Source: an uncultured Clostridia bacterium (GTDB taxonomy: Bacteria > Bacillota > Clostridia > Christensenellales > UBA1242). Taken from it: a DNA stretch of 63,643 bases. The DNA lies in contig CALVTD010000002.1 in the NCBI GenBank assembly GCA_944359935.1, forward strand, positions 1 to 63,643, written 5' to 3'. Numbering within the stretch: the first letter of the stretch is position 1; every line of letters begins with the position of its first letter. Below the pieces are notes generated by a model that was not told the DNA's origin, did no database searches, and saw nothing but the letters and a program-made list of their open reading frames with translations. A program made the translations under genes and the position numbers. This document shows, piece after piece, positions 33,801 through 51,165 of the stretch.

Positions 33801-36800
33801 ATCAAACACCACTTACACAACTTGGCAACTACTTTGAGCAAATTGCCTCTGGCTATTACAACAAAATTGATGGCACGCAGCAAACAAAAATTTATTACAG
33901 CCAATTTATTCAAAGAATAGAGGTTGTTGTGGCTGACGGACTTAGCGAAGAAACCGCAACAAGAATTTATAACTCCACGCAACTGGAAAACATTCAAACC
34001 AACAGACACTATGAACTTATGAACTCAGTCACACTTAGCAATTGGCAGTCGCTTGCGGCGCTCACCGGTTCGCTTAGGGGAACAGATGAAAATGTTGTGA
34101 TTTCGTTCACTGGCACTTCACAACCACTGTTTGAAAGCATTGGTGAAGGCGGCAGAGTAAGGCAATTTAGGGTGATTGGTAATGTTACAGGCGGAGGCTT
34201 TATTGCCAATGAAAACAATGGCGAAATTTCAAACATCACAGTAGGTGTTGACAGCACTGGCGAAACAGTTGCTCCAAGCAAGGTTACAGGCAAGGAAATT
34301 GCAGACACAGCCGTTTACGCAGGTGCAATTGTGGGCTATAACACTGGCTCTATCACAGATGTAAGGGTTGAAGGCGCAAGTGTTGAAATTGCAGGCAATT
34401 CATATGCCGGCATGATTGCGGGCTACAACAGCGGCACCATTACAAACGCATATGCCGAGTTTTATATCTTCTCTTCTTCCACAACGGGCGATGGCGAAGA
34501 TGCCGTAACAACAAATCAAACAAACACCATCAGCGGACAATATGTGGGAGGCTTTGTTGGATACATGGCTGGCGGAGAGATTAGCCACAGTTATGTTTAC
34601 AACTATAATTTAAGCGGCACCACACAGGCTACTCTGCCATTGCAGGGCGCCACAGACGACACAGTCGGCGCGTTTGCAGGCTATGTGGCTGGTGGAAGAG
34701 TTTACAACAGTTTCTCACTGATTTTTGCAACCGAGAATGATGGTTTAAGCGAAGTAGGAGAAGAGGCGGAAGGAGCCACATTTACCACCGCCGATGTTTA
34801 CTGGGGTTATGGCAGCAATCGTGAACGCATAAATAACAGCAATAATTGGATTTATAAAGCAGACACCAACAATTTCCAATCATATGTTAGAAATGACGAG
34901 CAGCACTTGACATTCTATCAAGAACAGATGGTTGAAAATGTAAACGCCTTTACAATTGCCTCGACAGAGCAATCTGTTCCAGTTGGCGCAGATGCAGGAA
35001 TTTTGTATATTTACAAACTGCGCTCCTCTTACAACCTTTCTGACAGTCAAAACAGTGAACTTACTGCCTACAACACTATTTCACTTTCAACGCTTTTTGG
35101 CGAAAGCGGCAGCAATTTGGTGGCTTTAAGCAACAATTCAAACATCGCTGAAATTGTTGGAAATAACATTGTTCTGCACGATGTGGGCGACTTTGAACTT
35201 ACAATTTCTTCCAAACAAAATTATTCACTTTCAAAAACTTTTGCCATTAAAGTTTTGTATGTAATTGACGACTTTACAATTTCTCACAATGAAGTGCAAA
35301 CCTCTGGGTTTACTGTGCAAGAAGGCAAAAGCGCCAATGTTGATTTTTCAGTGACCAGCAACATTTATTTGCGCGGGCAGTCTTTCAATTTGCAATTAAA
35401 CTCGATGCAAATCAACATGAATTTGCAAAACGAAACGCTTGAAAATAATGTAGACCTCACAGTCAATGGCATGGTGGGGCAGATTACAGTTCTTCCTGGC
35501 ACAAAACAACTTGCAAGCAATTTTGTGGTTGATGTAAACATCTCCGTTACAGGGCTTGATGAGGCATATAACGAAGCAATCATGGGCGCGTCCCAAAGGC
35601 AGTTAACAATTACACCAGTGCTTGGCGCAAACGACATAAGAATCAGTGCCGATTCGCTTAACATTGTGCCAGCATATGACTCTAAACTTGAAGTGGTGCT
35701 TGTTACTGACGAGCCTAGCGACGACCTTATTCTTTCGGTTATGAAAGACGATGCAGAGGCATACTTGACGCAAAGGGCAGACGAAGAGGATGGCGACAAC
35801 CTTATCTTCTCATTTGCTGGCGAGGATGTGCTTAACATACACGTTGCAAAATCTACTGTTAACGAAGGACAAATTTCTTACACTTTAACTATTTCGATAA
35901 TAGATTCATATCGCTCCACAATTATGCAGGCGGAGGGGTATACTCTTTACATATCCTCACAAACTGGCACAACTGATAAAGAAAACATCCCAGTTTCATT
36001 GACTTTAACCAGTCAGCCTATCAACCATGTAGACATAACAAATTATAGAGGCGGCAACACCTCTTCAACAAATGGCGTGAATGTTTATTCTAGAACTTAT
36101 GAGGCAGTTTCAGTGCTTTCACCAGGACGCAGTTCTGTTATGGAAATTTACATTGACCCAGACTTTGCTTACTATGAATACATGACGTTAACCTATCAAA
36201 ACACAGACGGCGCAGTGCTTGGCATCACAAAGATGGATAGGTATAACGATTCTAACAATCAATACACCACCGACACTTCCTCAAATGTTTCATACATTGC
36301 AAACGGAGTGAGGGTTGGCAGAGAAAGCGATGGGTTCTTTGCGTTTAGGCTTACCGCAGCCGGAAACATCTCGCAAGACACAACCTTCATTTTGTCAGCA
36401 AACTTCTATGACGCAAACGGAAACCTTGTTTGCGAAACAACCACCTATGAACTTTACATTTCATATTTGCCAGAAGCAGAAATCACCATTGACGGCGAAA
36501 TAAGCGCGCTTGTGGCAAAGGGTGGAAACTTGCAACTTACAATCATGCTTAGAAACGACCAAACCTTGGATGCACTCATCCCTGAAAACACAACTGGCAT
36601 AACCATTGCGCCAGAAAGCACTTGGGTTGTTACTGACAACCAAGACGGCACAAAAACAATAACTGCAAACCTTTACGCAAACCTTAATGCGGGCGTGCTT
36701 AGTGGTAAAACTGATGAAGAAAGCGGCCAGCCTATTGCTGAGAATGGCGAGTTTACAATCAGGGCACAGGTTTCAAGAGTAACCAACGGCGTGCAAGAAA

Positions 36801-39800
36801 TTAAAACCTCTTACGCATATGTAACCATTGTGGACTTTTTGCCTGAATCGGCAAGCGTTCAAGAGGCAACTTATGACGAAGATTTGGGAATGGATGTTTT
36901 AAGTGCTTACATTGGCATTCCAATTACCATTGATTTTGATTACACCTTTAATCCAGAAACATACGCTTACGACAACTCTAACCCAGATGAGGCAGCCCTT
37001 GCTCAAGAACTTTATGAGGCAAGAAACACATTCACAAGCACAGGCGGTTACACTGATGCTGATGGCTCATTCTCAATCAACGTCTCAAATGGCGCGGTTG
37101 TGCCAATCTATGAAAGGCTTTACAACGGCAATCAACGCCTTGACTTCACTGAAACCAGCCCTAAAACTTGGGTCTATTCAAACAGCAACTTCCGTTTAAC
37201 TTACAGGCAAACAAGTGCTACTGACGGCGTTTTAACTGTTTTGGGGCTTGTTACAACTTCTAGCCCAATTCAAATCACACTGAGAGACACAATCACGCTT
37301 ATAAATTCAGGAAGCAATGTGTCTTACACAATAAACACAACTTTTGCAATTGGGGTTGAGGTTCATTCCGACCAAGATTTGCCGCTGCTTATTGAAGATG
37401 CGGAAGACTTTTTGCAGGTTGCCCAAGAAGGAACTGCACAAAATTACATTTTGATGAACGACATTTATCTTCAAAATTACACCCCAATTTCAGCAGCAAA
37501 CTTCCTCAGCCTGGATGGAAACGGGCACACAATTCACATTCAGTCATTTAACACCACTGGCTCTGGCACTTTAAACTTGGCGCTCTTCACAGAGATTCCA
37601 ACCGGCTCTATAATGAAGAACATCAAGGTCAACTACTACACAGGTGGGAAAATAACCGTTGACACCACTTCGTCAGGTTACAGCACAATCAACATTGCAG
37701 GCTTTGCAATCACAAACAGCGGAACAATAACAAACTGCGAGGTTGTGGCTTATGAATACGACGGCGCAACCGTTCAAAACGGCGATGTGGGCATAATTGT
37801 AAGTTATGTTAGAGGTTCAACACCATATTACATTGGCGACGCTTCAATCACCAGCAATGTTGCAGGCTTTGTGATTACAAATGCCGGAAGCATAACCAAC
37901 AGCAAGGTTGGCGGTGAGGAAATCATCGTAATTGGCGAGCAGATTTTAGACACCAACCGCACATCTTACTCAACCGTGGAACTTGACAACTTTGTGCTTT
38001 CTGCACAAGGGCAGATGGCAGGCTTTGTGCTTACAAACTCTGGCGATATTGCATCATCGGGGGTTAAAAACATTCAAATCACAAACAATGCTTCGCTGAC
38101 AAGCAGTGAAACAGGCGGGTTTGTGGTTGACAACTCTGGCGAAATTAGAACCTCATATGTTGAAGGGGCGGGTGAGCAGACGCAGGTTGAAAACGATGTT
38201 TCACCACACTTCACAGACACCAACATCTCTTCAAGAGGGATTGTTGCAGGCTTTGTTGTAAACAACAACACAAGCGGAAGAATTTCAAATGGTTATTCAA
38301 ACATATTAATTAAAAATGACAGCGAACTTAAAAGCAGAACAAGTGCCGGCTTTGTTTACACAAACGAAGGGCACATTGAAACATCACTTTCTGCTTCCTA
38401 TGTTGAAATGGCCGACCTGTTGCAACTTGGCTTCTCGGGCGTGGACAGAAACGGCAACAGTTTAAATAGTGGAACTATCGAATTATCTTATTATATAAAT
38501 GAAGATTACAATGACGACTCGCTCAGCGATGTTCAAAATGTAATCTCAAATCAAGCCACACTTGTGGACAAAAACGAAATAAGGTCCAACAACGCTTATT
38601 ATGGCTTTATCTTTGCCAGCGAAAACTCAACAGAGGATGGCGTTTGGATGCAAAGCGCTTATGGGCCAAAACTTGTTAGCACTCAAACTTTGACAGTCAG
38701 CCATAGATACTATGTGGCAATCTCTCAGGATGAGTATGTTTTGCCATATGCAATTTTGGAGGACACAGCAAATTCTTCCTCTGCAAGATACAATACCGCT
38801 TATGGCAACGACATCAACCCAATTTTAATCACCTCTGCACTCGATTTTAGAGATGCAATGGGTGAGTCGACTTCAACTTACATCAGTGCCTTCTTTAATG
38901 ACACTGAGGTGTTTGGCTCTTACAGATTTACCAGCGACATTGACCTTTCACAACTCAACAATGAGCAGGGCAATGCAGAGGTTCAATCCATAGATAAAAC
39001 ATTCAGCGGAACAATTGACGGAAACGGATTTGCCGTAAACAATATTTCAATCCGCTCTTCAAACAACTCTGTGGGCTTGTTTGGACAGGCACAGACGGCG
39101 GTTATCAAAAGCCTTGACCTTGTTGTAGACAACGTAACGGCTTCCAACTCATATGTGGTTGGCGGACTGGTTGGTTTGGTGCAAGACTCAACAATTATTG
39201 ACATTAACCTCACGCAAAATGTGGCAGACGAGGCTTCATCCGGCGTGGGAGTGCTGGGCAGAAACATCGCTGGCGGAATTATCGGTGCGGCTTTTGGCAG
39301 CACAAGGCTTAACGGGCTTACAGTAAATAATGTTATTGTTCAGGCATCTTACTATGATGACAACACCTCCACAAACACAAGTTCGCTTGAAAGCATGCTT
39401 TACAGAACAGGCTTCAACCCAACTTTGATACGAAACAGCCAGCGTCAAAACATTAACAACTTCTACTCCAACAACATGCAAAACGGTGGCGTTGGAATGG
39501 TTTCATTTGCGGGCGGAATTGTTGGATATTTGGATATCTACAATTCACTGGAAGCATCATACACCGGCTTTGTTTATGGTGGCATCACAAGCACAGATTA
39601 TTCTGTAACAAAACTGTTGACGCAAGGCTCTGTTGATGTGCGCGGTGAAGTTGCAGGCGGTGTGTTTGGCTACACAGGCTATCAAACAAAGGCACAAGAC
39701 ATTGGCATTAAAGTTGCAAAGAGCGAAAACTCATATGCAAGCATTCTTTCTTACAACTATTTTGCAGGTGGAATTGCAGGCTTGGCCAATGGACAATTCT

Positions 39801-42800
39801 ACCAAGTTTATGCAGAGCATGAAGAAAGCGTTCAAGACGCAATTGAAGACACAACAAGCGCTTACTACATCAGCGCAAACACAAGCACAGAGCGCGGCGT
39901 GCTTGACCTGTTTAGATACACCGGCCAGGAGGGAACAGGCGAGTATCGTTACTATCCAAAATATGTTGGCGGACTTATGGGCGTTATGGGCTCAGGCACA
40001 ATATATGTTGGTTACAACAAACTTAATGCAATCAACTACACAACCGATGGTGTTTCATATGCCGGCGGAATTGCTGGCGCAGCAATTGCAGGCAGCAGTT
40101 ATTATATCGACAACAACGCAACTCAACTTAGGGTTTTAACAAACCTTTACATGCAGGAAGTTTACTCAACCGGTGACGTTTATGCGTATGGTGGAGAGTA
40201 TAATGGCGGCGCAATTTCACAAACCGAAAACCATGCCTTTGGCGGACTGTTCGGCGTGCTTGAAGATAACGAGAATTTGGTTATGTCGTCAGTCAACTCG
40301 TTTGCTCATTATGGAATTTTGGATAATCCATATTATGAACAGAGCGCTGAAAACACAACCGGCGCAACAATCTATGCGGTTGCAGGCAAGGTGGACGCAG
40401 ACGCAAGCGTAACTGTTATGCCATCAAGCACAGCAATCAGCAATTCTGAGGGCAACACTTCAAGTGAAATCACATCTTTAAAATCTTTTGGCTACATGAA
40501 TTCATACTCAGCGGCAGGCATTTCACTCACCGTTGAGCCATACCCAGGCTATGATGCTGAGCAGGCAGCGGACGCTGACTACTACTTTGTTATTACCTCT
40601 GTTTCATCATTCACTTCACAAACCGAGGGCTTCACAATAACCAACGGCGCATTCATCAATTCAAGGGCATGGAGCAATGAAAACTGGGTGCACACCACAA
40701 ACACACTTTATCCTGAAATCAACTTTGTAAACACAGTTAATTACATCTATTTAGACCAAAACAATGTTGAAATTGTGCTTGACAGAATGCAAAATTCCTC
40801 AATCGAAGTTAGGGTGAGGGGCAGAAACGCCGACGGAAATGGCTACGGAATGGTTGACCTTCGTGGATACGACATCAACATTGAAGGCTTCTCGGGCACA
40901 ATTGTGGGCTATTCCACCAGCGCTGATTGGGGCGAAGACAACGCACCTGAGTTGATTAGAACATCATATTACAAAGAATCTAGTGATGACACCAACGCAT
41001 CTGGCTATCCAGGCTTGATTATTGACGAACCGATATTTGCAAGCACTGGCTCTGGATTTAGCGTTGAAAACCTCAACATTGTTGTTGAGAGAGCAGATAC
41101 GCCATCGACAGATGAACCGTTTGAATTTACTGGCGGCATAATTTCAAGCGCGGATGTAACAGACGCGACTATTGAAGGCGTTACGGTTTATGTGCGTTCG
41201 CCAATTGTGGTCAATGACTTAGCGTCAAACGCAGGTTTGTTGGTTCCAAATGCTGTCAACACCTCATTTAGAAATATTGAAATAATCTTTGCATATAACT
41301 TGGCAAGCGGCAGCAGTTATATTGAATTTCGCCACAACCCTGATGAAGGCGACAACAATGACGGGCTCAATGTAGGTCTTCTTGCGGGAACTATTTTACA
41401 AAACTCAATTTTTGAAGCACTTAGAATTCAAGACATTACAATTAAACATCCAAGTTTGGAAAGTGCTAATCATGTATTCCAAGTAAATGCATCTGGAAGT
41501 GTTTATGCAGGGTTGTATGCAGGCAGATTGGCGGAAAATGTTTCAAACGGCACAGGCTCGTCAGGTGACGGAGAGACAGAACAGCCAGCTTCGCCAACAC
41601 AAAATTATGCAGGCGTGATTGTTGAGGTTAAAGCGCCAGAACTTACTGGATCGTCAACTGGGGACTCAATGACCTCATCAATATCCATAGCCTCATTAAT
41701 TAATGGAGAGACACCAACTACTTTAACAAGTTTGACTCTTGGCGGATATTTTGGTGAGTTGACATCACAAAATGCAAGGCTCGCTCTTTCAACAGAGCAA
41801 ACCTATACTCAAAAAATTGCTTTGAGAGTTTCGTCTTCTGCAAGCACGGTTACGATTGGCGGAATTGCCGGCACAGCCCAACTTCAAAACTTTGAAGTGA
41901 ATAACACCGCTCAATCTGATGGCAACACATTATCCACTGATGTTTACTTGGGTTCAAGTGCAAAACTTACTAACACCACAATGGGCATGTTGTTTGGTGA
42001 GGCCTCTGGCTCATTCAACATTCAAAACCTTACTGTAAACGGATTACTGCAATCAACTGCGGAAGGTGACGCCGAGGGCTCGCTTAATAAAGTGTCATCA
42101 ATAGGCGGATTGATTGGCGCAAACCACGCTACAATCAGTGCAATCACAAATGTTGCAGTGAATTTTGATGCTTATAAAGACTCCAAACCAGCATTAAATA
42201 ACAGCGCATTTACAACTGGCGCCAACAATTCGGTTGCTATTGAAAGCCTCAGTTTTGGTGGCTTTATCGGCACAAACTATGGAAGTGTTTCCTTAACCGA
42301 AGGCACAAACGGTGAGGACAACACCTACAATAATTCAGGCGAAAACTATGTTGCATTTGCTGGCGACCCAACAACATTTAACTTGGGTGATTTAATCGGC
42401 TCAAATGTAGGCAATGGCCTTTCAGTTTCAAACTTCGCTTCAAATGGTATCACAGTGGTAAACGCGGCGGATACTAGCGAAATTCTTAGCATCGGCGGAC
42501 TTATTGGTAGTGACAATACGGCATACATCACAAATATTGCCGCAAGTTCATCCGGTGCTGATGTTCAAGTTTTATCCAACTTCTTTATCAGCGCGCAAAA
42601 TGTCAACGCTGGCGGCATGATTGGCAATTTGGTAAAGGCAACCTCTTCAAATAGCAAAGTAATTTCAAACGCTGTGTTTGGCGGAGCGTTTAAGTTTAAT
42701 ATAACTGCCGAAGCCGACAATGCAGACGGCATACATTCAGTGGGCGGCATGATTGGTAAGGTGCCTGATTCTAGTGACGGTGGCAATGTTACTGAGACAA

Positions 42801-45800
42801 TTTCAATTGAAAACACAATCAACTATGGTGATGTAATTTACACCTATGCCGATGGTGAAAGCGGTGAATCGCAATTAGCCGATTATTACTTCGGCGGAAT
42901 TGTAGGTCAGTCGGTGGTTGCTACGGAGGATACTCCACGTGCAAGAATACAAGCAGAAGGCAACATCATTGCCTTCACAAACAATAACCCACGCTTGGCT
43001 TCGAGCAAACATGAAACCAGCGCACTGATTGGTGACGGCGGAAGCGCGTTGCTAAGCAACAACAATTATTATTCTTCACAACTTGTGCTTGCTGTCAGCG
43101 ACGAAACAAGAATGGTAGACTCTACTTATGTTAGTCGTAAAAATGTAACAAACTATGCTGGATATGGCACAGTTAACACGACTAGTATATTGGATAGAAT
43201 TTCAGCGCGCCTTGGCGAAACAGATTTAGGCACAAAAATTAACCCTGTAACAGGTGACGGCTCGGCAGACGCTAACACCAACGGCATTAAATACTATGCT
43301 GTTGTGCCTAACGAGGGAGATTTTGCTGACAATTTCGCATACATCGGTGATTTTGCAGAAATCAATTCACCAATTTCCACTGTGGGAGAGCATAGTTTTG
43401 TGGCTGGCGTTGTGGTTAATAATAATGCTGATGACGAGACTTCTACATATGAAGATCAAACTAATGTTGGCGGCTTAGTTCACAACCTTAACGGCGGCAT
43501 AATTTATGCAAGCATGGCAACTGGCACACTTTCAGTTGGCGGAACTAACGTTAAAAACATCGGCGGTTTGGTTGGCTTGATGAATGGAGGGTTGATTGCT
43601 GAAAGCACCTCATCAGTCAACATTGTGTATCGTGCTGGCAAAAATGGAACAACCTATGGCACAGCCTCCGGAATTGCCACAACAGGCACATCCGCTGGGA
43701 CAACTGGGACAACTTACAATTACTTTGATAAAGTCTACTCAACAGGCGAGGTGGCTTCCTATATCAGCGCCAATGTTTATGCGTTCACGAATGGAACAAA
43801 TGCAACAGTGCGCGATAGTTACACAATCAGCAAGGTTAATCGAAAAGATTACACCGCCGAAGCAGTAAGTGGCACAATCGGCGTGTTTGGCGAGGCTAGC
43901 GCGCATGATAATGCAGGAAACTGGTATGATGGAAATGCCACTGAGGTTCAAGAAAATGTTGGAGCAAGTGCGACAAATTCTACAACAAAAACACTTGCAT
44001 ATAATGCCGCAGCAGTGGATCCAAATGCTGGTTGGAAACAAAACATTGAATATAACTATGGCTATCCAACGCGCAATTTTGCGGCATTTGATGTGTCAAC
44101 AACAACAGAAGATGGCTATTACTTAATTCCAAACGCAACCAAACTTGCGCAAATTGATGATGGGCCTGACTTGAATTATAAACTTGTGCGTGACATTGAC
44201 TTGTCAAAAACAAGTTTTGCTTCTACTGATGATAAAAGTTCATGGAAAAGTGTGGAAAACTCTGCAATATTTGATGGCGATGGTCACACAATAAATGGGC
44301 TTATTAAAGCAACCTTGTTTAGTTCTGCTGGCACAATTCAAAATTTAAGAGTTACCAATGCAGAAGTTACTACTGGCAACGCAGTTGTTGCAAATTCGAT
44401 TGAAAATGCAACCAACGTTATTGCTTCTGGAACATTGACAATAACAAAAGCAGCCCAAAATTCAAAAATAGGCGGTTTGTTTGCAGCAAGTACTTATGCC
44501 GGTGCTCAAATTTCAAACTGTAAAAACTATGTTGCAATCACGGCAGAGGGTGCTAGCCTGTCTGTTGGTGGCATTATTGGATCTTTGCCAAATGAAGGCA
44601 GCAACACGATAAAAAATTGCTATAACTATTCGCCAATCACTGTAAACTCAGCGGGCGGCTATGTTGGCGGAATTGCTGGACAGGCAAATACCATTACAGG
44701 GTCTGGCAACGAAAACACCGTGTTCAACGGTTACACCACAAAAATAACCACAACTAACACCACAACAGAAAATAATTATTATGCCGGCGGAATTGCAGGA
44801 ATGGCAGGCAGCGTTTCCGATTGCTACAATACCTCAATGGTTAAAGCGGGTCACAAATCAAACACCGAAGCCTCTTACGCAGCCGGTATTGTTGCTAATG
44901 GAACGGCCTCAGGTTGTTCTAATGAGGGCTATATTGAAGCGTTAGGAAAAAATTACGAAATTAGTCAAATTAGCAAACCAGGCGTTAGCGTTAGTGGCAC
45001 TGAGGTAAAGTTAAATAAAAATTTAACATATGGCGGAGGCACTAGAAATGTGTATGCCAGTGCAATAGCAATAAATGGCACCACAATTTCCAACTCTGGA
45101 AATAATTCAGGAAGCGTTTATCAAAATGGTAATTTTGGCAAACAGACAATTATAAAAGAAGGAACTCACTATGACATAGCCACCTTAGGTTTAAACAATG
45201 TTCAGTTGACTAAAACAGGAGACATTACAATTAGTCTCACAGGCGAACTTGTTGTTGCTGAACTTGATGCACTTGGCGGGCCAAAATCGTTCTATATAAA
45301 AATCACCAGAAATATTAATTATGGCAGTGGTGTCGACAAGCCACAAACAATTTACACCTCTTTACAAACCATTAGAAGCACATATGAAAGCCAAGCATTA
45401 ACATCCGGGGACGATTCAACAAGCATTTCTCGTTCCGCAACAACGGCACCAGAAGGAACTAATGCTTTGCAATCTGTCAATATCGGCGGCAAATTATATG
45501 CATTTGTAAAAGATGCAGATGCGTTTAAAAGCACGACAAATTCTGGTTATGCTGTTGCCACAACAACATTGCTGGGGACCGTAGAATTAAGCCATAGCAC
45601 AGCAAGCGATGATGACGCAACAATTGCAGACCTGATCTCTGCGGGTTATACATTCAGTGTGTCAAGCACGACAACAAACGTAACTGGTGTGGCGTCAATC
45701 AACAGCGCGAGAGATGGCTTAAACATTACTTTCACATATCCAACCGGTATAGATAGCATCGCTTACTCAATAACCGCTACTAAGAGCGCTTACAACCAAA

Positions 45801-48800
45801 CAATCACAATAAACCCAAGCAATTTGTTTGTTGGCACTGAGAATGACAAAACAGTGATTTCCATATCCTTATCATTTGATGTGATAACGGGCGCAAGCTT
45901 TGACATAGGGGGCTACAAATTTAAAGCAGCGGACGCAAGAGAGTTAACCTATACGGTAGGCAAAGACGAAAATGCGAACACAATAATCAGCGCACTTAAC
46001 GGAAACTCATATCTTATCAACACCAATGCAGGTTCAACATACACCACAAACGGAGATGGATATGGTTCGTATACTTTCTCTTCTCAGGCAGGATCTTACG
46101 ACTTAGAAAACGACTTAGAAAAAACATACACGGGCACAAGGCAGGAATCAACAGACCTTGCGTATATTGACACAGGTTTAAGACCTGTTGCAATGGATGG
46201 TGATCTTGTAGCAGGCATGACAATAGGCACGCCAACTGCTGATGATAGAATCACGTTAGCCGCGGCTCCTACTGTAAATGCAGCAACAGCAAGTGCACAA
46301 GTTGAATTCACAATTCGCGTGTTAGGGCATGTTGATTACATCGAAGCACTGGATATACAAGCGAACTGGTGTGGTTATGACGAGATCAATGTTGGAGACC
46401 GTGTGGACCTAAATAATTTTAGAAGTGCATGGTTAGGTGTATGGATGCATCATCATTTAAGTGGCGGGACAGTGGTTAAAGACTATGATGATTTTGAGGC
46501 GCATATGCAAGTTCGAGGAGTAACTTATACTGAAACCTATACGGAAATTTCGCTATATGTTCTTATGGTCTCTGACCTTGATGAAAGTGTAAGTAATATT
46601 ACAGGAGACTTTTGGACTCAAGTCGGCATACCTGCAATGGTTTTAAGGTTTAGTTACGAAGATGGCACCTCTCTGCCAGAAAATTCTACTTTTGAATATG
46701 CTTATGAGCAAACTTACACAGAAAACATAAGCCTTGCTGATGGGTCAACTTTGAATTTAACATACACAAAAATTGATGGAACCGAAGAACTTAGTTGGGA
46801 CCTTGCATATGCAACAGACACAGGCGGCATACTTGGATATGAAGTCTATCAGTATGATGGCGTATATTACTACACTGGCTCGGCAACATATCGTTTAACA
46901 TCAGCGACTATAACCATTGGTGGGTATGATAATGATAACCATACCTACCTAATTAACGGCAATTATTATCACATAAATGCTGGCACAGAAATACTTAATA
47001 ATACAGTAAAAAGAGTTAGCATAGCGGTTGATGACATGAAAAACGATGCGGACAAAACAATTGATATCTATGAAAGAACAACAACGTCAAGCGTTTCATA
47101 CACCGTGACAGAAGAAAATTATTATACGGCTGGCACAGCTACCGCTGCTCTTTACGAGGAAAAACTTGTTTTGATTGACCAAACCGAAGCAAACACAATA
47201 ACCTCTTCTGATAGCAGCATCACAGTGAATGGAACAAGTTATACAATCTCATACTCGATGAGTGATGGAAATTATATTGTAACATTCACTCCTGCCAGTG
47301 GAGATGCAATTGTGTCTCAAAATGACATGGCAGTGTTTGGCAATCAGGAATACAGTGTTTATTTTGATGAAGAAAACGGCACCGTAACCTTAAACCCTCA
47401 ATACTCTGGCAGCGCGGGCATGCTCACTATTGGCGGAACCACATTGTTCTATATTTTGAATGGTGATGGAGATATTGTGGTATATCAAAATGGCGAGGAA
47501 TATGACGTAGCGAATAATAACTACACAATCACAATAAATGGCACAACTTATGCAATTTCAAACAGAAGTGAATTGGTTGAGGATGAGCTTAACGTTACGG
47601 TTTCTTCAACAACAAGTGGAGAAGGTGATGACGCAACCACAACCTACACGCTAACCTATACCAGGTCTGACGGAGTGATTGAAAGTTATCAATTTGTGAG
47701 ATTTGAATATTACCTTGAACAACAGTCAGCACAAACAAGCATCACGCTTCGAAATGATGCGCAAACCGTCACTGTGCCTAATGGTGGCTACATTGATGGC
47801 GATATTGCTGTTACTGCTAGTGGTCCATATGAAGGTTATGATATAGTCGGCAATCAGGTTACATTTGATGCATTTTCTGGTGAAAACAGCAGAACCTACA
47901 CGATATCAGCCAATTACAAAAACTATTCCGTTGGTAATCAAAGTGTTAATGTAAGTGGTAAAACCTACAATTTCGATGGAGTGGTATTGCGCGGCGACAT
48001 TGATTTGGGTGCGCTTAATGACTCATTAACATTAAACATACAAAACAAAGGGTTGCTTGTTGGTGATGGATACTTTGTAAACTACTATACTTCAACAACC
48101 AGTTTATTTAAAGCACCAGATAACGATAACGACAACGTTAATGTTAACATTATCAAAGATTTGAATGTTGCGGGTACAGTGGCGCCAACCTCTGGCGAAA
48201 AGGCAGGTATTTTATTAGATGTTGTTAAAGCCAATTTGAACAATGTTAAAACCTATGGCACAATCACCACTGCTAAAATTACTTATAACAGTTTTACTGC
48301 TGGTGGTGTAGCGTATGAAATAAGCAGTTCTGCAAACATTACCAATGTAAGCAACTTTGCATCATTCTCTAATAACAGCAAAAGTTTCAACATGGCGGGC
48401 ATCGTATACACAGCGACAGGAACATCATGGGCCGGAAGTGTTTCAAACTATGGAACAATTGTCGGTGTTCGTGGCGATGACGGCACAGGTGCTGGCGCTG
48501 CAGGTGGCAAAGGACAAGATGTTTATGCAATCGCGAACACTATCTCTTCGCAAAATGTAAATTCTGCGAATATATACAACTATGGAGTAGTAAAAGCGGG
48601 CGATGGTGGCAACGGCCGCCGAGGCGCAGATGACATAGGTGGAAGTGATTTAAAAGATGATCAAACCACAAATTGGTTAGAGTATGACTCTATTACAAAA
48701 AGTAACTGGACTTTTTCTCCTTATTACATGTTTGTGCTAAGCCCGTTAGCGGATAATGCCAACGAATATTTATATAAAGACGATAATGGTTATCTTACTC

Positions 48801-49546
48801 CAACTGAAGAGGGAATTGCTTATTTGCTTGCAGAAAGTCCGTTATGGGCAGGTTGGGATGATTGTTATATAACATCAGATGAATTATATTTCATCAAAAA
48901 AAATCCATCATGGTTGTCATGGACAGGCGACGCGACAGTTGTTAATAAAACTGGTGGCGCTGGCGGCAGCCCTGGAACAGCATACTATTATGGCAATGTT
49001 TCCAATAGTCACACAGCGACTGAGGAAGAGCCATATACAATAAGCGGAGCGTTATTGACGGGAACAGAAGGAAAAGATGGCGCACGAGGTAACGATGGCT
49101 GGGGCGGAATCAACTTGATAAAATACACTTCTTCAATAAACAGTAAAGGAACATATGATGTCTGGGGTTCTTTATGGAAAATCAATTTAAATGGTAACCG
49201 AAATAGCAATGACGATAATATTTCTTATATAACTTCAACCTTTTCTTTTGATGAACCTAAGGCTCCTGCAAACATAGATTCTTGTTTTGATTCCAATGGT
49301 AATTTTGCTGCAGATGCTTGGGGCGGCCCGGAAGGTGGACTAAGTGGAACGTGGATAAATATAATTTATAATAACTATAAAACTGCAGGTTATATCTCTT
49401 GGGTTGAAATGAGGCTTCATTTGGGAGGTGCTGCAGGGGGTGACGACAGAACGCTGCGATCTGCATATCAAGCATTCTATGTAACAGAAGGAATAACAAG
49501 TGCTATTTGCTATGATTATTCTGCTGTTAACTCAAATACAGATTAA
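30845..49546 (+). CDS. Giant (6,233 aa) putative lipid-anchored surface protein: Ig-like arrays, repeated GLUG-type beta-helix modules and a glycine-rich C-terminal module
   Basis: Uninterrupted ORF with a strong Shine-Dalgarno. The signal MKNKFSKFFVALLSTFLLFGGVVFTAC has a lipobox Cys at residue 27. A Big_2-like segment reads ...ITIEGKSEGSASIVLRSHEGNGQKVINVYVY. I count about 40 copies of h-GG-hhG-(4-8 aa)-G-x-I-x-N motifs, for example VGGFVGYMAGGEISHSYV and IGGLIGANHATISAITNV. There are five module-opening motifs of the type Y.L..DIDL...F.G.(F)DGNGHTI. No LPXTG, SLH or C-terminal TM. Confidence 0.9.
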   Translation: MKNKFSKFFVALLSTFLLFGGVVFTACGEAAHATISVSSQDFVSEDYIEIDLGSDDTTALITATVDGVSSGRVSVNNDFQSIISANAVYNESSNSTQITIEGKSEGSASIVLRSHEGNGQKVINVYVYSDILGVEQKQDSAGSSNQYVVKGEATVLDSDRFLSFTSREGGESNRKDVTWQLVSIDEHTTLEGNVLTVGQDSTLTNVLLRATSVYKPEYYADVNLTVVSALPDIQLDFSRNPDAFSDQIEEGESFNIVKNDDSQEEAVGYIRLTVDTPTGGDLPSLQVDRIVTGEDGESSARVSITTYNTPVSATSTQIIYQIRAIANDANTLPEVLDVRFDVGYENFNYTKSSVNFQINLVDVIDRIEVTSNGQTITSGDELEIYDNYNGDSSYQFGRPFVVSLGPDTVANDQALFDIELSSADGLNINDYIRIYNERGQQIVLEQDGNAFVARGLANNSLIYIRTAENFEEEAAIDCRFVSQQSPSVYLDVDLVCYRSPNANFSIGTQAVRYISTYGENTILVEVYSTSLVGINRGLSLSDVQSDLFEISNFSFDSATGTIRFNVSNLQQNISNENLSISLYIRHENGYRSIENIVIAPYLPMNEASITHQGQSSTAISKVEYDIQDFGAIEGSNSLQSLIMRLGSSVTLNLNTNSATSISFAFRYNNAAMPEDINADNLNNILGLFANAETEQDRYATFDYATNRLTLAANDFKGYVLFTFTGYDENHGQVLAYRIFYLESYTPPTRLSPNPSNLTLTALDSIAQQERDLATQSVSISYRVDGNAITYAGANYVSFQSVAGLTGTYGDNYIKFGNYRIENIVITNRNITFDIIAETTDGYQSFTDQIVVTYTVFGINYLATIDLVIENADRVEVVEWENASADGIIYLDLYGQSTEDTTYPLITNVEPSDAHNIELAYMFVPNAGTQTDLVEISDLGVVSINDNATVGGTGYIFIYPKDAVRVYDGIEQFVYYIDDENGNADSYQTPLTQLGNYFEQIASGYYNKIDGTQQTKIYYSQFIQRIEVVVADGLSEETATRIYNSTQLENIQTNRHYELMNSVTLSNWQSLAALTGSLRGTDENVVISFTGTSQPLFESIGEGGRVRQFRVIGNVTGGGFIANENNGEISNITVGVDSTGETVAPSKVTGKEIADTAVYAGAIVGYNTGSITDVRVEGASVEIAGNSYAGMIAGYNSGTITNAYAEFYIFSSSTTGDGEDAVTTNQTNTISGQYVGGFVGYMAGGEISHSYVYNYNLSGTTQATLPLQGATDDTVGAFAGYVAGGRVYNSFSLIFATENDGLSEVGEEAEGATFTTADVYWGYGSNRERINNSNNWIYKADTNNFQSYVRNDEQHLTFYQEQMVENVNAFTIASTEQSVPVGADAGILYIYKLRSSYNLSDSQNSELTAYNTISLSTLFGESGSNLVALSNNSNIAEIVGNNIVLHDVGDFELTISSKQNYSLSKTFAIKVLYVIDDFTISHNEVQTSGFTVQEGKSANVDFSVTSNIYLRGQSFNLQLNSMQINMNLQNETLENNVDLTVNGMVGQITVLPGTKQLASNFVVDVNISVTGLDEAYNEAIMGASQRQLTITPVLGANDIRISADSLNIVPAYDSKLEVVLVTDEPSDDLILSVMKDDAEAYLTQRADEEDGDNLIFSFAGEDVLNIHVAKSTVNEGQISYTLTISIIDSYRSTIMQAEGYTLYISSQTGTTDKENIPVSLTLTSQPINHVDITNYRGGNTSSTNGVNVYSRTYEAVSVLSPGRSSVMEIYIDPDFAYYEYMTLTYQNTDGAVLGITKMDRYNDSNNQYTTDTSSNVSYIANGVRVGRESDGFFAFRLTAAGNISQDTTFILSANFYDANGNLVCETTTYELYISYLPEAEITIDGEISALVAKGGNLQLTIMLRNDQTLDALIPENTTGITIAPESTWVVTDNQDGTKTITANLYANLNAGVLSGKTDEESGQPIAENGEFTIRAQVSRVTNGVQEIKTSYAYVTIVDFLPESASVQEATYDEDLGMDVLSAYIGIPITIDFDYTFNPETYAYDNSNPDEAALAQELYEARNTFTSTGGYTDADGSFSINVSNGAVVPIYERLYNGNQRLDFTETSPKTWVYSNSNFRLTYRQTSATDGVLTVLGLVTTSSPIQITLRDTITLINSGSNVSYTINTTFAIGVEVHSDQDLPLLIEDAEDFLQVAQEGTAQNYILMNDIYLQNYTPISAANFLSLDGNGHTIHIQSFNTTGSGTLNLALFTEIPTGSIMKNIKVNYYTGGKITVDTTSSGYSTINIAGFAITNSGTITNCEVVAYEYDGATVQNGDVGIIVSYVRGSTPYYIGDASITSNVAGFVITNAGSITNSKVGGEEIIVIGEQILDTNRTSYSTVELDNFVLSAQGQMAGFVLTNSGDIASSGVKNIQITNNASLTSSETGGFVVDNSGEIRTSYVEGAGEQTQVENDVSPHFTDTNISSRGIVAGFVVNNNTSGRISNGYSNILIKNDSELKSRTSAGFVYTNEGHIETSLSASYVEMADLLQLGFSGVDRNGNSLNSGTIELSYYINEDYNDDSLSDVQNVISNQATLVDKNEIRSNNAYYGFIFASENSTEDGVWMQSAYGPKLVSTQTLTVSHRYYVAISQDEYVLPYAILEDTANSSSARYNTAYGNDINPILITSALDFRDAMGESTSTYISAFFNDTEVFGSYRFTSDIDLSQLNNEQGNAEVQSIDKTFSGTIDGNGFAVNNISIRSSNNSVGLFGQAQTAVIKSLDLVVDNVTASNSYVVGGLVGLVQDSTIIDINLTQNVADEASSGVGVLGRNIAGGIIGAAFGSTRLNGLTVNNVIVQASYYDDNTSTNTSSLESMLYRTGFNPTLIRNSQRQNINNFYSNNMQNGGVGMVSFAGGIVGYLDIYNSLEASYTGFVYGGITSTDYSVTKLLTQGSVDVRGEVAGGVFGYTGYQTKAQDIGIKVAKSENSYASILSYNYFAGGIAGLANGQFYQVYAEHEESVQDAIEDTTSAYYISANTSTERGVLDLFRYTGQEGTGEYRYYPKYVGGLMGVMGSGTIYVGYNKLNAINYTTDGVSYAGGIAGAAIAGSSYYIDNNATQLRVLTNLYMQEVYSTGDVYAYGGEYNGGAISQTENHAFGGLFGVLEDNENLVMSSVNSFAHYGILDNPYYEQSAENTTGATIYAVAGKVDADASVTVMPSSTAISNSEGNTSSEITSLKSFGYMNSYSAAGISLTVEPYPGYDAEQAADADYYFVITSVSSFTSQTEGFTITNGAFINSRAWSNENWVHTTNTLYPEINFVNTVNYIYLDQNNVEIVLDRMQNSSIEVRVRGRNADGNGYGMVDLRGYDINIEGFSGTIVGYSTSADWGEDNAPELIRTSYYKESSDDTNASGYPGLIIDEPIFASTGSGFSVENLNIVVERADTPSTDEPFEFTGGIISSADVTDATIEGVTVYVRSPIVVNDLASNAGLLVPNAVNTSFRNIEIIFAYNLASGSSYIEFRHNPDEGDNNDGLNVGLLAGTILQNSIFEALRIQDITIKHPSLESANHVFQVNASGSVYAGLYAGRLAENVSNGTGSSGDGETEQPASPTQNYAGVIVEVKAPELTGSSTGDSMTSSISIASLINGETPTTLTSLTLGGYFGELTSQNARLALSTEQTYTQKIALRVSSSASTVTIGGIAGTAQLQNFEVNNTAQSDGNTLSTDVYLGSSAKLTNTTMGMLFGEASGSFNIQNLTVNGLLQSTAEGDAEGSLNKVSSIGGLIGANHATISAITNVAVNFDAYKDSKPALNNSAFTTGANNSVAIESLSFGGFIGTNYGSVSLTEGTNGEDNTYNNSGENYVAFAGDPTTFNLGDLIGSNVGNGLSVSNFASNGITVVNAADTSEILSIGGLIGSDNTAYITNIAASSSGADVQVLSNFFISAQNVNAGGMIGNLVKATSSNSKVISNAVFGGAFKFNITAEADNADGIHSVGGMIGKVPDSSDGGNVTETISIENTINYGDVIYTYADGESGESQLADYYFGGIVGQSVVATEDTPRARIQAEGNIIAFTNNNPRLASSKHETSALIGDGGSALLSNNNYYSSQLVLAVSDETRMVDSTYVSRKNVTNYAGYGTVNTTSILDRISARLGETDLGTKINPVTGDGSADANTNGIKYYAVVPNEGDFADNFAYIGDFAEINSPISTVGEHSFVAGVVVNNNADDETSTYEDQTNVGGLVHNLNGGIIYASMATGTLSVGGTNVKNIGGLVGLMNGGLIAESTSSVNIVYRAGKNGTTYGTASGIATTGTSAGTTGTTYNYFDKVYSTGEVASYISANVYAFTNGTNATVRDSYTISKVNRKDYTAEAVSGTIGVFGEASAHDNAGNWYDGNATEVQENVGASATNSTTKTLAYNAAAVDPNAGWKQNIEYNYGYPTRNFAAFDVSTTTEDGYYLIPNATKLAQIDDGPDLNYKLVRDIDLSKTSFASTDDKSSWKSVENSAIFDGDGHTINGLIKATLFSSAGTIQNLRVTNAEVTTGNAVVANSIENATNVIASGTLTITKAAQNSKIGGLFAASTYAGAQISNCKNYVAITAEGASLSVGGIIGSLPNEGSNTIKNCYNYSPITVNSAGGYVGGIAGQANTITGSGNENTVFNGYTTKITTTNTTTENNYYAGGIAGMAGSVSDCYNTSMVKAGHKSNTEASYAAGIVANGTASGCSNEGYIEALGKNYEISQISKPGVSVSGTEVKLNKNLTYGGGTRNVYASAIAINGTTISNSGNNSGSVYQNGNFGKQTIIKEGTHYDIATLGLNNVQLTKTGDITISLTGELVVAELDALGGPKSFYIKITRNINYGSGVDKPQTIYTSLQTIRSTYESQALTSGDDSTSISRSATTAPEGTNALQSVNIGGKLYAFVKDADAFKSTTNSGYAVATTTLLGTVELSHSTASDDDATIADLISAGYTFSVSSTTTNVTGVASINSARDGLNITFTYPTGIDSIAYSITATKSAYNQTITINPSNLFVGTENDKTVISISLSFDVITGASFDIGGYKFKAADARELTYTVGKDENANTIISALNGNSYLINTNAGSTYTTNGDGYGSYTFSSQAGSYDLENDLEKTYTGTRQESTDLAYIDTGLRPVAMDGDLVAGMTIGTPTADDRITLAAAPTVNAATASAQVEFTIRVLGHVDYIEALDIQANWCGYDEINVGDRVDLNNFRSAWLGVWMHHHLSGGTVVKDYDDFEAHMQVRGVTYTETYTEISLYVLMVSDLDESVSNITGDFWTQVGIPAMVLRFSYEDGTSLPENSTFEYAYEQTYTENISLADGSTLNLTYTKIDGTEELSWDLAYATDTGGILGYEVYQYDGVYYYTGSATYRLTSATITIGGYDNDNHTYLINGNYYHINAGTEILNNTVKRVSIAVDDMKNDADKTIDIYERTTTSSVSYTVTEENYYTAGTATAALYEEKLVLIDQTEANTITSSDSSITVNGTSYTISYSMSDGNYIVTFTPASGDAIVSQNDMAVFGNQEYSVYFDEENGTVTLNPQYSGSAGMLTIGGTTLFYILNGDGDIVVYQNGEEYDVANNNYTITINGTTYAISNRSELVEDELNVTVSSTTSGEGDDATTTYTLTYTRSDGVIESYQFVRFEYYLEQQSAQTSITLRNDAQTVTVPNGGYIDGDIAVTASGPYEGYDIVGNQVTFDAFSGENSRTYTISANYKNYSVGNQSVNVSGKTYNFDGVVLRGDIDLGALNDSLTLNIQNKGLLVGDGYFVNYYTSTTSLFKAPDNDNDNVNVNIIKDLNVAGTVAPTSGEKAGILLDVVKANLNNVKTYGTITTAKITYNSFTAGGVAYEISSSANITNVSNFASFSNNSKSFNMAGIVYTATGTSWAGSVSNYGTIVGVRGDDGTGAGAAGGKGQDVYAIANTISSQNVNSANIYNYGVVKAGDGGNGRRGADDIGGSDLKDDQTTNWLEYDSITKSNWTFSPYYMFVLSPLADNANEYLYKDDNGYLTPTEEGIAYLLAESPLWAGWDDCYITSDELYFIKKNPSWLSWTGDATVVNKTGGAGGSPGTAYYYGNVSNSHTATEEEPYTISGALLTGTEGKDGARGNDGWGGINLIKYTSSINSKGTYDVWGSLWKINLNGNRNSNDDNISYITSTFSFDEPKAPANIDSCFDSNGNFAADAWGGPEGGLSGTWINIIYNNYKTAGYISWVEMRLHLGGAAGGDDRTLRSAYQAFYVTEGITSAICYDYSAVNSNTD
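48542..48619 (+). repeat. Left arm of a 78-bp inverted repeat, inside the giant gene
   Basis: 73 of 78 positions are identical to the reverse complement of 49908-49985, by manual alignment. This includes perfect blocks of 30 nt (48562-48591) and 27 nt (48593-48619). It encodes ...SQNVNSANIYNYGVVKAGDGGNGR. Confidence 0.9.
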
Positions 49547-49550
49547 AAAA

Positions 49551-49574
49551 ACGGCTAAATTTAGCCGTTTTTTA
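49551..49574. terminator. Bidirectional terminator shared by the giant gene and the inverted cassette
   Basis: ACGGCTAAA/TTTAGCCGT is a perfect 9-bp stem (49551-49568), flanked by an A7 run and a T5 run. Confidence 0.85.
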
Positions 49575-50028
49575 ATAGCCATAGCATACTGTTGATAAGA
49601 ATTCGCCTTCTGGGCCTGCATATACATTAAAAGTAACATTATCACAAGTATATCTTAGAGATTCATATCCATATGATCCAGTTATATTATAATAAATTGA
49701 AATGTTTCCATATGTATTTTGATTGTTTGTATATGTTTTTGTCCCGCCAGTTCCATTATACCAACCTGCCGTATAACCAGCATATGTTCGCAATGAATAG
49801 TATGCTATTCCCACCGAGCCTGCTGCTCCACCAGCGGCCCCTTTGGTGCCGTTTGTTGGAGCGGTTCCGTCTGTGCTGTCGATGCCTCCTTTTCCGTCTG
49901 TGCCGCAGCGGCCGTTGCCACCATCGCCCGCTTTCACTACTCCATAGTTGTATATATTCGCAGAAACTGCATTTTGCGCAGAGATAGAGTAATGAGAGGT
50001 GGTTTTGTCAAAAACAATTTTTTTTCAT
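49572..50028 (-). pseudogene. Start-less paralog (silent cassette) of the giant protein's C-terminal glycine-rich module
   Basis: The open frame 49572-50024 encodes ...DKTTSHYSISAQNAVSANIYNYGVVKAGDGGNGRCGTDGKGGIDSTDGTAPTNGTKGAAGGAAGSVGIAYYS...CYGY. The giant protein has ...ANTISSQNVNSANIYNYGVVKAGDGGNGRRGADD...NKTGGAGGSPGTAYYYG. The only upstream ATG (50026-50028) is in another frame behind an A8 run and stops after 6 codons. No Shine-Dalgarno and no signal peptide. Confidence 0.6.
49908..49985 (-). repeat. Right arm of the 78-bp inverted repeat, inside the cassette
   Basis: See the left arm (48542-48619). The codon phase is the same in both arms. Confidence 0.9.
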
Positions 50029-50092: not shown

Positions 50093-50806
50093 ATGGCAAA
50101 AATCAATGACGATGAAGCAAACATTCACGCAGGGCATAGGCAAAGATTGCTAAATCAAATTTGCAAAGCAGGCATTGAAAATATGAGTGATATTGTTGCC
50201 ATGGAATTTATTTTAACCTATGTTTTCCCGCGTTGCGACACCAACACAATCGCGCATAGGCTTTTGGATAAGTTTGGAAACCCCGCCGATGTTTTGAATG
50301 CGGATTGGACGCTTACAAAAAATGTAAAAGGTATGGGTGAGGCTTCGGCGAAAAAGTTGCACCTTCTTGTTGACATTTTCAATTACTACACAGAACTTTC
50401 TTTGGATAAAAAATATCAGTTTGCGTACCGCTCCAATATCGCAGATTTCTTTGAGGAACTTTTGAGATTTAAAAATGTTGAAACTTCCTACATAGTTGGC
50501 GTGGATGCTGCAAACAGGGTTAAATCAAAAATCAAACTTTCCATTGGTGGAATAAAAAGCGTGGGAATAAGCACGCATGAGATTGCAAATTTCATTACAA
50601 ACATCAAGCCCGCTTACGCATTTTTGGCGCATAATCATCCGCAAGGAAAAGCGCAGCCGTCCCAAGGTGATGTTGAAGGAACTCAAATTGTTGAGTCGCT
50701 GCTTTCAAGTTTAGGCGTTCCACTTATTGACCACATTATTGTGGGAATTGATGGCGTGTTTGGAATGAAAACCAACGAATATTACAGAACTTTTGAAAAT
50801 TACTAA
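50093..50806 (+). CDS. radC: RadC-like JAB/MPN-domain protein (UPF0758)
   Basis: N-terminal HRQRLLNQ... and an HhH-like segment VKGMGEASAKKL. JAB motif is FLAHNHPQGKAQPSQGDVEGT. Confidence 0.8.
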   Translation: MAKINDDEANIHAGHRQRLLNQICKAGIENMSDIVAMEFILTYVFPRCDTNTIAHRLLDKFGNPADVLNADWTLTKNVKGMGEASAKKLHLLVDIFNYYTELSLDKKYQFAYRSNIADFFEELLRFKNVETSYIVGVDAANRVKSKIKLSIGGIKSVGISTHEIANFITNIKPAYAFLAHNHPQGKAQPSQGDVEGTQIVESLLSSLGVPLIDHIIVGIDGVFGMKTNEYYRTFENY

Positions 50807-51165
50807 AAATTGATAAATTTTGCAATAATTGCGCCAATTAACCCACCAATCAAAGAAAAAATTAAACAAATTAATGCAAAAGTCACATATTTTGGCTTTT
50901 GTTTTTTTTGTTTGGTCTGGTTTTCGGTTATTTGGTTGCCTATTGGAAGAATGCATAAACAATAAACATTGTCGTCATCATATTTAACATGCACGCATTC
51001 GTTTCTTTCCAAAAAGGTGATGATGTTTTCAAGGCCATCTTCGTCAACTCTGTATTTTGCGGGCATGGCAGAAATTATGTCGGCTTTGTCGATGACTTTA
51101 TATCCCGAACCATGACACTCTTTTTGTAATATTTTTAAAACTAAATTTGATTTTAAATCCAGCAT
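50803..51165 (-). CDS. Membrane-anchored winged-helix-like protein, paralog 1
   Basis: 120 aa. An N-terminal domain of about 75 aa (LVLKILQKECHGSGYKVIDKADIISAM...LENIITFLERNECVHVKYDDDNVYCLCIL), a Lys-rich linker QTKQKKQKPK, and one C-terminal TM (YVTFALICLIFSLIGGLIGAIIA). It overlaps the radC stop by 4 nt, tail to tail. Confidence 0.55.
   Translation of the reverse strand: MLDLKSNLVLKILQKECHGSGYKVIDKADIISAMPAKYRVDEDGLENIITFLERNECVHVKYDDDNVYCLCILPIGNQITENQTKQKKQKPKYVTFALICLIFSLIGGLIGAIIAKFINF

Follow-up and report, generated by a model that had tools for sequence, protein, structure and literature searches.

Can the far end of a giant surface protein be exchanged, by recombination, with a silent copy that lies beside its gene in the opposite orientation? 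This question is raised by a locus on contig CALVTD010000002.1 (assembly GCA_944359935.1) of an uncultured Clostridia bacterium, of which a stretch of 63.6 kilobases (kb), hereafter the window, was analysed. The window carries a gene for a giant lipoprotein of about 6,000 residues, followed by a silent, inverted cassette that shares a conserved coding segment, the recombination arm, with the 3' part of the giant gene. Gene-altering inversions are best known from restriction specificity subunits, phage tail fibres, PilV and outer-membrane proteins of Bacteroides, and usually involve a dedicated invertase. From a comparison with related loci, mostly contigs from gut metagenomes (designated by L-numbers), we read the locus as a gene-altering inversion system in which the tip of the giant lipoprotein would be swapped, with RecA-type recombination as the likeliest engine. 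For this reading as a whole, a probability of roughly 0.72 appears appropriate. The elements on which it is built are the following, in coordinates of the window.

30845..49546, plus strand: giant gene, 6,233 amino acids (aa), with a lipoprotein-type signal peptide at the N-terminus (MKNKFSKFFVALLSTFLLFGGVVFTAC).
48643..49546, plus strand: expressed C-terminal module, 'tail A', aligned with the tails of relatives.
48537..48642, plus strand: arm 1, expressed copy, the in-frame recombination arm, encoding ISSQNVNSANIYNYGVVKAGDGGNGRRG.
49885..49990, minus strand: arm 1, cassette copy, partner of the expressed arm 1.
49088..49117, plus strand: arm 2, expressed copy (GNDGWGGINL), a second conserved junction and a crossover segment in relatives.
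49546..49573, both strands: shared palindromic bidirectional terminator hairpin, which overlaps both stop codons and moves with the invertible segment.
49572..50021, minus strand: silent cassette of B type, with an open frame that starts 12 codons ahead of the arm and extends as far as the stop.
50093..50806, plus strand: RadC-family gene, conserved right neighbour of the cassette and anchor for the locus comparisons.

The original prediction had proposed that orthologous loci be compared for both orientations of the segment between the arms, and both are present within two species. In a sister species, the flanks of L014 and ERZ1026780.152, a contig found by a metagenome scan with a degenerate arm core, are 96.5-98.7% identical on the plus strand, and the inter-arm segment matches on the opposite strand, with 931 nucleotides (nt) at 98.2% and 464 nt at 97.4% identity. 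Both inversion junctions of ERZ1026780.152 lie on one contig, and the pair is an inversion polymorphism within one species. The second case concerns the window's own species, to which L032 belongs (identity to the window of 97.9% across 10.1 kb). In L032, the silent slot beside RadC is occupied, in inverted orientation, by the tail expressed in L023 and L024; between L023 and L032, 1094 nt match at 97.5% on the minus strand, arm and terminator included, and the plus-strand flanks are 97.1-97.9% identical.

Exchanges of greater age and of smaller extent are found as well. Between L014 and L015, which represents a related species, the 1.4-kb inter-arm segment is inverted, while the RadC-side flanks are 93% and the giant-gene bodies 69-82% identical. 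The matrix of tail identities is crossed, in that the expressed tail of L014 resembles the silent tail of L015 (52%) and the silent tail of L014 the expressed tail of L015 (68%), against a background of about 30%; these two loci are separated by an older inversion. In L019 and L022, whose giant bodies are 98.6% identical, the middle module, from arm 1 to GNDGWGGLNL, is reciprocally swapped, and the swapped segments of 309 nt and 325 nt match on the minus strand at 93.5% and 98.5%, respectively. A swap of the middle piece only is the product expected of two nested exchanges. The outcome foreseen for the window, namely inversion of the segment by recombination at the in-frame arms, with a new C-terminal module joined to the gene and the former one stored as the silent copy, can be recognised in these related genomes, and the conclusion that DNA inversion swaps the protein's tip in this lineage is largely supported by such sequence comparisons.

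Within the window, a repeat search delimits the inverted arms at 48537-48642 and 49885-49990, which are 106 nt long, 87% complementary and 1242 nt apart. The shorter arms described at first (48542-48619 and 49908-49985) align with five mismatches in 78 positions and include perfect blocks of 30 and 27 nt, exactly as stated, and the 27-mer AAAGCGGGCGATGGTGGCAACGGCCGC is present in exactly two copies in the window, one per strand, where 100 shuffles led to an expectation of none. The codon phase is the same in both arms, which encode ...SANIYNYGVVKAGDGGNGR. On the left, the homology between giant gene and cassette begins abruptly at ATCTCT(T/G)CGCAAAATG, at the same nucleotide in every genome examined. 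Across genomes the arms vary from 71 to 400 nt in length and from 87 to 100% in identity, and the window's pair, at 87-90%, is among the most diverged of the genomes compared. The two frames run tail to tail into a single terminator, as had been claimed; the palindromic hairpin at 49546-49573 has folding energies of -14.6 and -14.1 kcal/mol on the two strands (z-scores -5.8 and -4.2) and the stop codons of giant gene and cassette are 25 nt apart.

The cassette frame reads ...SISAQNAVSANIYNYGVVKAGDGGNGRCGTDGKGG...STVCYGY before its stop. That it is devoid of a start codon was borne out, as a stop precedes the arm by 12 codons and no ATG stands in frame; ahead of the arm, the cassette has 12 open codons and the giant gene 5,897 codons. 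The paralogy of the two tails, asserted from the window alone, stands over the full tail when undeleted cassettes of L001 and other genomes are used, but does not stand within the window, where significant similarity between tail and cassette is confined to the arm and its surroundings, about 40 aa in all (E = 4e-14 in BLASTP), and does not reach significance in other segments. The intact L001-type cassette aligns along the expressed tail, and the motifs AYYY, GNDGWGGLNL and a C-terminal ..SAxCYxY are common to both. Tail A carries, in addition, an insert of about 107 aa that is specific to the A family and follows immediately after the arm (roughly 48629-48950).

The lengths given for the tails after GNGR, 308 aa expressed and 111 aa in the cassette, are correct. 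The notion of a compact 111-aa alternative tail, however, has to be abandoned, as this is not a designed module; it is derived by a 462-nt deletion from a tail of about 265 aa. The deletion and a second, weaker repeat are located as follows.

49796..49805, minus strand: deletion junction, a 462-nt (154-codon) in-frame loss relative to the intact L001 cassette (L001 9252-9703).
48951..48989, plus strand: weak second inverted repeat (GGAGGSPGTAYYY motif), 39 nt, 72% complementary to 49796-49834.

The junction sits at a 10-nt direct repeat (GCATACTATT, coding AYY), and the loss, which removed the module core together with the partner of arm 2 from the window cassette, looks like a microhomology-mediated in-frame deletion. 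With a truncated donor and diverged arms, the window probably shows the system in a degraded or weakened form, and an inversion in the window strain would yield a truncated tip.

The layout of giant gene, inverted cassette, RadC, three small open reading frames (ORFs), UvrB and UvrA recurs in every related cassette-bearing contig, across a clade of gut metagenome contigs that is small. Distinct intact cassettes number 13, as against four damaged ones, and many tail types occur within one species. In L033 (2400-4864), which belongs to the window's species, a tail of type E is expressed and one of type F is silent, the arms being 120 nt long and 98.3% identical; its copy of the system is much better preserved than that of the window. 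A profile search of 1.84 billion representative proteins retrieved 35 relatives, about 30 of them short ORFs and four of them long proteins or protein fragments, with one of 6,372 aa among these. Eleven of the short ORFs include the arm and start at most 49 aa upstream of it, with the same 5' truncation and the same asymmetry to the giant gene as in the window; the other 20 or so start inside the tail. With only 35 relatives found, the family is restricted to a narrow clade, although its tips are very diverse. When homologues were searched with the intact cassette, only short ORFs were returned, those that contain the arm beginning just upstream of it and having very unlike C-terminal parts. 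A giant protein with a B-type tail was not among them, an absence that carries little weight, as the search also missed giants known to contain the query.

The arms and the silent copies bear traces of continued use. The two arms of one genome have synonymous and lineage-specific variants in common, and they evolve in concert. Non-reciprocal patches occur in both directions, with cassette-type bases in the expressed arm of L006 and giant-type bases in the cassette arms of L011, L038 and L040. When silent cassettes were compared with each other, the ratio of nonsynonymous to synonymous divergence (dN/dS) was 0.19-0.37 in four of five pairs, the fifth being the closely related L011 and L023 (0.93, at a synonymous divergence, dS, of 0.06). 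Values of 0.19-0.37 are unexpected for DNA that is never translated, and they indicate purifying selection on the silent copies. In the older comparisons, the tail has a dS of 0.26-0.59 and the gene body one of 0.03-0.06; between the window and L001 or L021, for instance, dS is 0.26-0.31 in the tail (48584-49546) and 0.05-0.06 in the body upstream (47000-48500). Between strains, dS in the tail exceeds that in the body about five- to tenfold, which suggests old alleles kept by selection, or imported alleles.

What could drive such exchanges? In the window, searches of essentially all larger ORFs against Pfam and NCBIfam detected no integrase, resolvase or invertase domain, in agreement with the earlier remark that no recombinase is encoded there, and none was found among the genes called within 10 kb in relatives. 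The resemblance to shufflon or hsdS variation that had been suggested seems not to extend to the enzyme, as no site-specific invertase was found and the anatomy favours homologous recombination. The lack of a recombinase, the long and variable arms, the two crossover segments and the conversion patches fit homologous recombination better than a site-specific enzyme. A serine invertase system of the Gin/Cin/Pin/Hin kind, which has an adjacent invertase gene, 26-bp crossover sites and an enhancer, was rejected for the window, in which there is no resolvase/invertase domain and the homology is long and variable. A diversity-generating retroelement, which combines a reverse transcriptase with a template and a variable repeat that differ at adenines, was likewise discarded: no reverse transcriptase domain occurs in the window, the repeat, situated 900 nt from the 3' end, has an inverted orientation, and its mismatches are of every kind and not specific to adenines.

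The mechanism we propose would operate as follows. A giant surface protein, lipid-anchored at its N-terminus, ends in a fast-evolving module of about 210-340 aa, and one promoterless, 5'-truncated spare module lies inverted downstream, tail to tail across one bidirectional terminator. Arm 1 (ISSQNV..NYG(I/V)VKAGDGGNG(R/G)RG) and arm 2 (GNDGWGGLNL) are in-frame conserved segments common to both modules. Recombination of arm 1 with arm 1 would invert the intervening 1.2-1.4 kb, fusing the spare module to the giant gene and parking the old one, and an additional exchange at arm 2 would swap the middle module alone. The engine would be general homologous recombination of the RecA type, acting at low frequency and also giving rise to the conversion patches in the arms. 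Selection for a new distal tip, with a new binding or antigenic specificity, would fix variants, and horizontal import of cassettes would add further variety. The sequences themselves show the anatomy, the two orientations within species, the reciprocal exchange of modules, the concerted evolution of arms and the purifying selection on silent copies; which enzyme recombines them, how often they switch and what the tip does biologically are points that we infer.

Several observations weigh against this reading. All of the evidence on orientation consists of comparisons between assemblies, and L032 ends at the terminator, such that its comparison with L023 covers its silent slot rather than its expressed tail. 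The ten same-species contigs that were found through the exact RadC protein of the window (L001-L010) all have the window's orientation. Among them, the 462-nt deletion of the window cassette is also present in L003, L007 and L010, it is combined with a premature stop in L006, and the cassettes of L002 and L009 are frameshifted, as are, beyond these ten, those of L034 and L035; in this sub-lineage, with A tail and B cassette, the cassette is in decay. One locus, L018 (CAVCJG010000003.1, 10714-10984), is without a cassette, its giant gene and RadC being 270 nt apart; it is the one locus confirmed among the matches listed in a contig scan with the arm alignment. Finally, the distal domain expressed in L023 is 97% identical to that silent in L025, although the surrounding gene is only 64-80% identical. 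Such module similarity indicates that modules also move between lineages, and horizontal replacement, as a contributor, could mimic inversion in single cases.

The alternative that survives best, although it is an unlikely one, is phase variation driven at high frequency by a tyrosine or serine invertase that is encoded in trans, elsewhere in the genome, and acts on a short core within the arm, in the manner of Rci, Gin/Hin or the Mpi of Bacteroides. The sharp left boundary of homology, at one nucleotide in all genomes, and the strong conservation of parts of the arm at the nucleotide level across species would suit such an enzyme, and invertible regions without a nearby recombinase have been documented (PMC9881135). 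Set against it are the lack of a recombinase, both in the 63.6 kb and among genes called in relatives up to 10 kb away, tracts of homology whose length (71-400 nt) differs by genome, exchanges at two unrelated conserved segments, and the non-reciprocal conversion patches in the arms, all of which homologous recombination accommodates better. Seven short contigs from different samples (L036-L042, five from Logan and two, L042 included, from ENA) end inside the RadC-side arm, in the first 99-188 nt of the contigs. Such breaks would be expected of mixed orientations, but equally of any inverted repeat that exceeds the assembly k-mer in length, and for this reason they were set aside as evidence of heterogeneity.

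Slightly less probable is that the cassette is a duplication relic: an old tandem-inverted duplication would have left behind a defunct paralogue, truncated at its 5' end, with no donor role and with arms kept similar only by incidental gene conversion. The original prediction had itself named decay of the cassette by stops and frameshifts as what would make it a relic, and such decay was found in part, in the window's sub-lineage only (the frameshifts of L002 and L009 and the stop of L006). The loss of 154 codons from the window's cassette, the missing in-frame start, the loss of the cassette in L018 and the single orientation in the ten loci with the window's exact RadC protein are all what a relic would show, and the sub-lineage with A tail and B cassette, taken alone, would look like a decaying one. 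Within these ten loci, L001, L004, L005 and L008 retain an intact cassette of about 293 aa; they come from one project, three of them having record names typical of long-read assemblers, and show a single orientation. More broadly, species that have diverged retain the architecture, and 13 distinct intact cassettes, of many types, were counted; silent copies have a dN/dS of 0.19-0.37 in four of five comparisons, both orientations occur within two species, and L019 and L022 differ by a reciprocal exchange of the middle module. A relic would describe the local condition of the window's sub-lineage only, and does not fit the system. As a side observation, the giant gene is broken into several ORFs in L004 and L005 (1-8992) and intact in the megahit-style L001 of the same project; the split is likely a matter of indel errors, not of biology.

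Less probable still is allelic replacement from a population pool without any intrachromosomal inversion, in which imported DNA would recombine at the arms and either slot would be replaced independently, with the result that one module could be expressed in one strain and silent in another. It would account for the 97% identity of the modules of L023 and L025 amid giant-gene sequence of 64-80% identity, for a dS of 0.26-0.59 in tails versus 0.03-0.06 in the body in the older comparisons, and for the many tail types within one species. The exchange between L014 and ERZ1026780.152, however, is reciprocal for both modules and the terminator, its identity equals that of the flanks and both junctions lie on one contig, and the swap between L019 and L022 is reciprocal too. 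For each of these swaps, replacement would have to involve two imports that coincide and that bring in precisely the module of the partner. Most likely, replacement occurs alongside inversion and does not take its place.

Directly upstream of the cassette, one further feature bears on how its frame might be opened.

50018..50028, minus strand: ATG followed by an A8 tract (T8 on the plus strand), one base out of frame with the cassette.

A tract of A7 would put MKKIVFDKTTSHYSISAQ... in frame, and one of A9 would put MNSQMKTHEKK... in frame. A slipped-strand switch at this site was rejected, because there is no sign that the tract varies in length: four haplotypes out of five have A8, and in L002, the fifth, the tract is interrupted (AAAATAAAAA). 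That the cassette is an independent small gene turned on by slippage in this tract is most improbable, for although the ATG-A8 lies one base out of frame and an ATG stands just before the arm in some relatives (MKNRSISSQNV in P0001 and P0006, MKTKIVF in P0004), the length of the tract is constant, no promoter-like site was found on the cassette strand, leaders are wholly different between species, frameshifted copies persist, and the ORF always starts at the homology boundary, as expected of a truncated donor.

Among known systems, the closest class is that of gene-altering inversions, whose attributes have been defined as an inverted repeat of some length, coding sequences that lie close together, asymmetry between gene and pseudogene, and variation within a species (Milman, Yelin and Kishony 2023; PMC9881135). 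The locus described here has in-frame inverted repeats, of 106 nt in the window, within two opposed coding sequences; one of the copies is 5'-truncated, pseudogene-like and very close, and an alternative protein end results. Orientation varies between genomes of one species, as seen for L023 and L032 and for L014 and ERZ1026780.152. The differences are that no recombinase is nearby, that there is only one spare copy, that the inversion is known here from comparisons between assemblies, and that the target is an uncharacterised lipoprotein of about 6,000 aa, not a restriction-modification specificity subunit, a tail fibre, PilV or a SusC/D-type protein. On its sequence features, the locus would appear to belong to this known class, in a new target family.

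In its mechanism, the locus would most resemble the sap system of the Campylobacter fetus S-layer, for which Dworkin and Blaser, in the 1990s, reportedly described nested inversions that depend on recA. There, too, long conserved coding segments are said to act as inverted arms without a dedicated invertase, and nested combinations to generate surface variants. Features of this type in the present loci are arms of 71-400 nt at 87-100% identity, exchanges at both arm 1 and arm 2, conversion patches and the lack of a dedicated recombinase. In sap, the conserved segment lies at the 5' end and a promoter-bearing piece moves among about eight full-length homologues, whereas here the promoter and 95% of the gene are fixed, and the exchange is limited to the 3' module, for which there is one promoterless cassette.

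The outcome, in turn, would be like that of the G segment of Mu, the C segment of P1 and the R64 shufflon, in which the C-terminal specificity part of a fibre- or adhesin-like protein is swapped and the N-terminal part and promoter are fixed. These systems work with short sites of 19-34 bp and an adjacent dedicated serine or tyrosine recombinase (Gin, Cin, or Rci acting on PilV), in contrast to the homology of 71-400 nt and the absence of a recombinase in reach found here. The R64 shufflon consists of several segments bounded by 19-bp sfx repeats next to the rci tyrosine recombinase gene, with PilV as target; a shufflon of this type was rejected for the present locus, which has one segment, arms of 71-400 nt, no recombinase and no PilV domain in its target. 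With pilE/pilS of Neisseria, vlsE of Borrelia and MgPa of Mycoplasma genitalium, the locus has in common a promoterless, partial donor copy, and conversion patches in its arms; those systems are mainly non-reciprocal and have many cassettes, while here there is one cassette and events at the level of modules are reciprocal. In the MBA and UU172 element of Ureaplasma, inversion at inverted repeats within coding sequences also produces a chimeric surface lipoprotein with a constant N-terminal and alternative C-terminal parts, but its repeats are short and its events, described as site-specific and frequent, involve several loci, as opposed to one locus with one cassette here (PMC3047005).

The protein itself gives few hints as to its function. 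Its signal peptide (window 30845-30925) ends in ...GGVVFTAC, and for the roughly 6,200 residues that follow, Pfam and NCBIfam scans returned no match and a PDB sequence search a single marginal one (E = 0.007) that is not meaningful. Searches of the tails in Pfam, NCBIfam and PDB returned nothing, and an AlphaFold2 model of the tail from an 11-sequence alignment, with a mean predicted local distance difference test score (pLDDT) of 36, was unusable. Because the predicted lipid anchor is N-terminal, the swapped module would be the end farthest from the membrane, and is plausibly a binding or antigenic tip. In most tails, the arm is followed directly by a glycine-rich stretch with a loose three-residue period (GNGRRGADGKGGTDKTDGTAPTNGTKGAAGG; window 48620-48700 and 49830-49907), which is reminiscent of a short collagen-like segment preceding a globular head.

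Beyond RadC, three small ORFs lie before UvrB.

50803-51165, minus strand: small ORF, 120 aa.
51292-51816, plus strand: small ORF, 174 aa.
51886-52245, plus strand: small ORF, 119 aa.

Their position is kept in most related loci, though some loci have a middle or last ORF of different size, or lack it. None of the three has a match in Pfam, NCBIfam or PDB, the last giving only a sub-threshold hit to Peptidase_C39. The window as a whole has about 40% guanine plus cytosine and a Firmicutes-like set of genes (ComFC, RecD2/YrrC, YetF and pth-mfd).

A more far-reaching picture can be drawn, tentatively and with rather less expectation that it will hold: a recombinase-independent, two-tier shuffler, in which either the whole tip or the middle module could be exchanged by way of two in-frame conserved junctions and the silent slot could serve as a landing pad for imported cassettes, providing at least 30 tip types across the clade for a lipid-anchored fibre of 6,000 residues.

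For the organism and its relatives, the locus would extend the principle of gene-altering inversion in three directions: the target is the distal end of a surface protein that is among the largest in bacteria, the host is an uncultured gut lineage whose gene content is Firmicutes-like, and no invertase lies in reach. The locus also singles out the last 210-340 residues of an unannotated protein as its putative specificity-determining, fast-evolving part, and in doing so may provide a handle on the binding partner. The local switch may be crippled in the window strain; elsewhere in the window's species, as judged from the assemblies compared, the system is demonstrably active, and the locus would offer a natural test case of a reversible switch maintained by homologous recombination alone.

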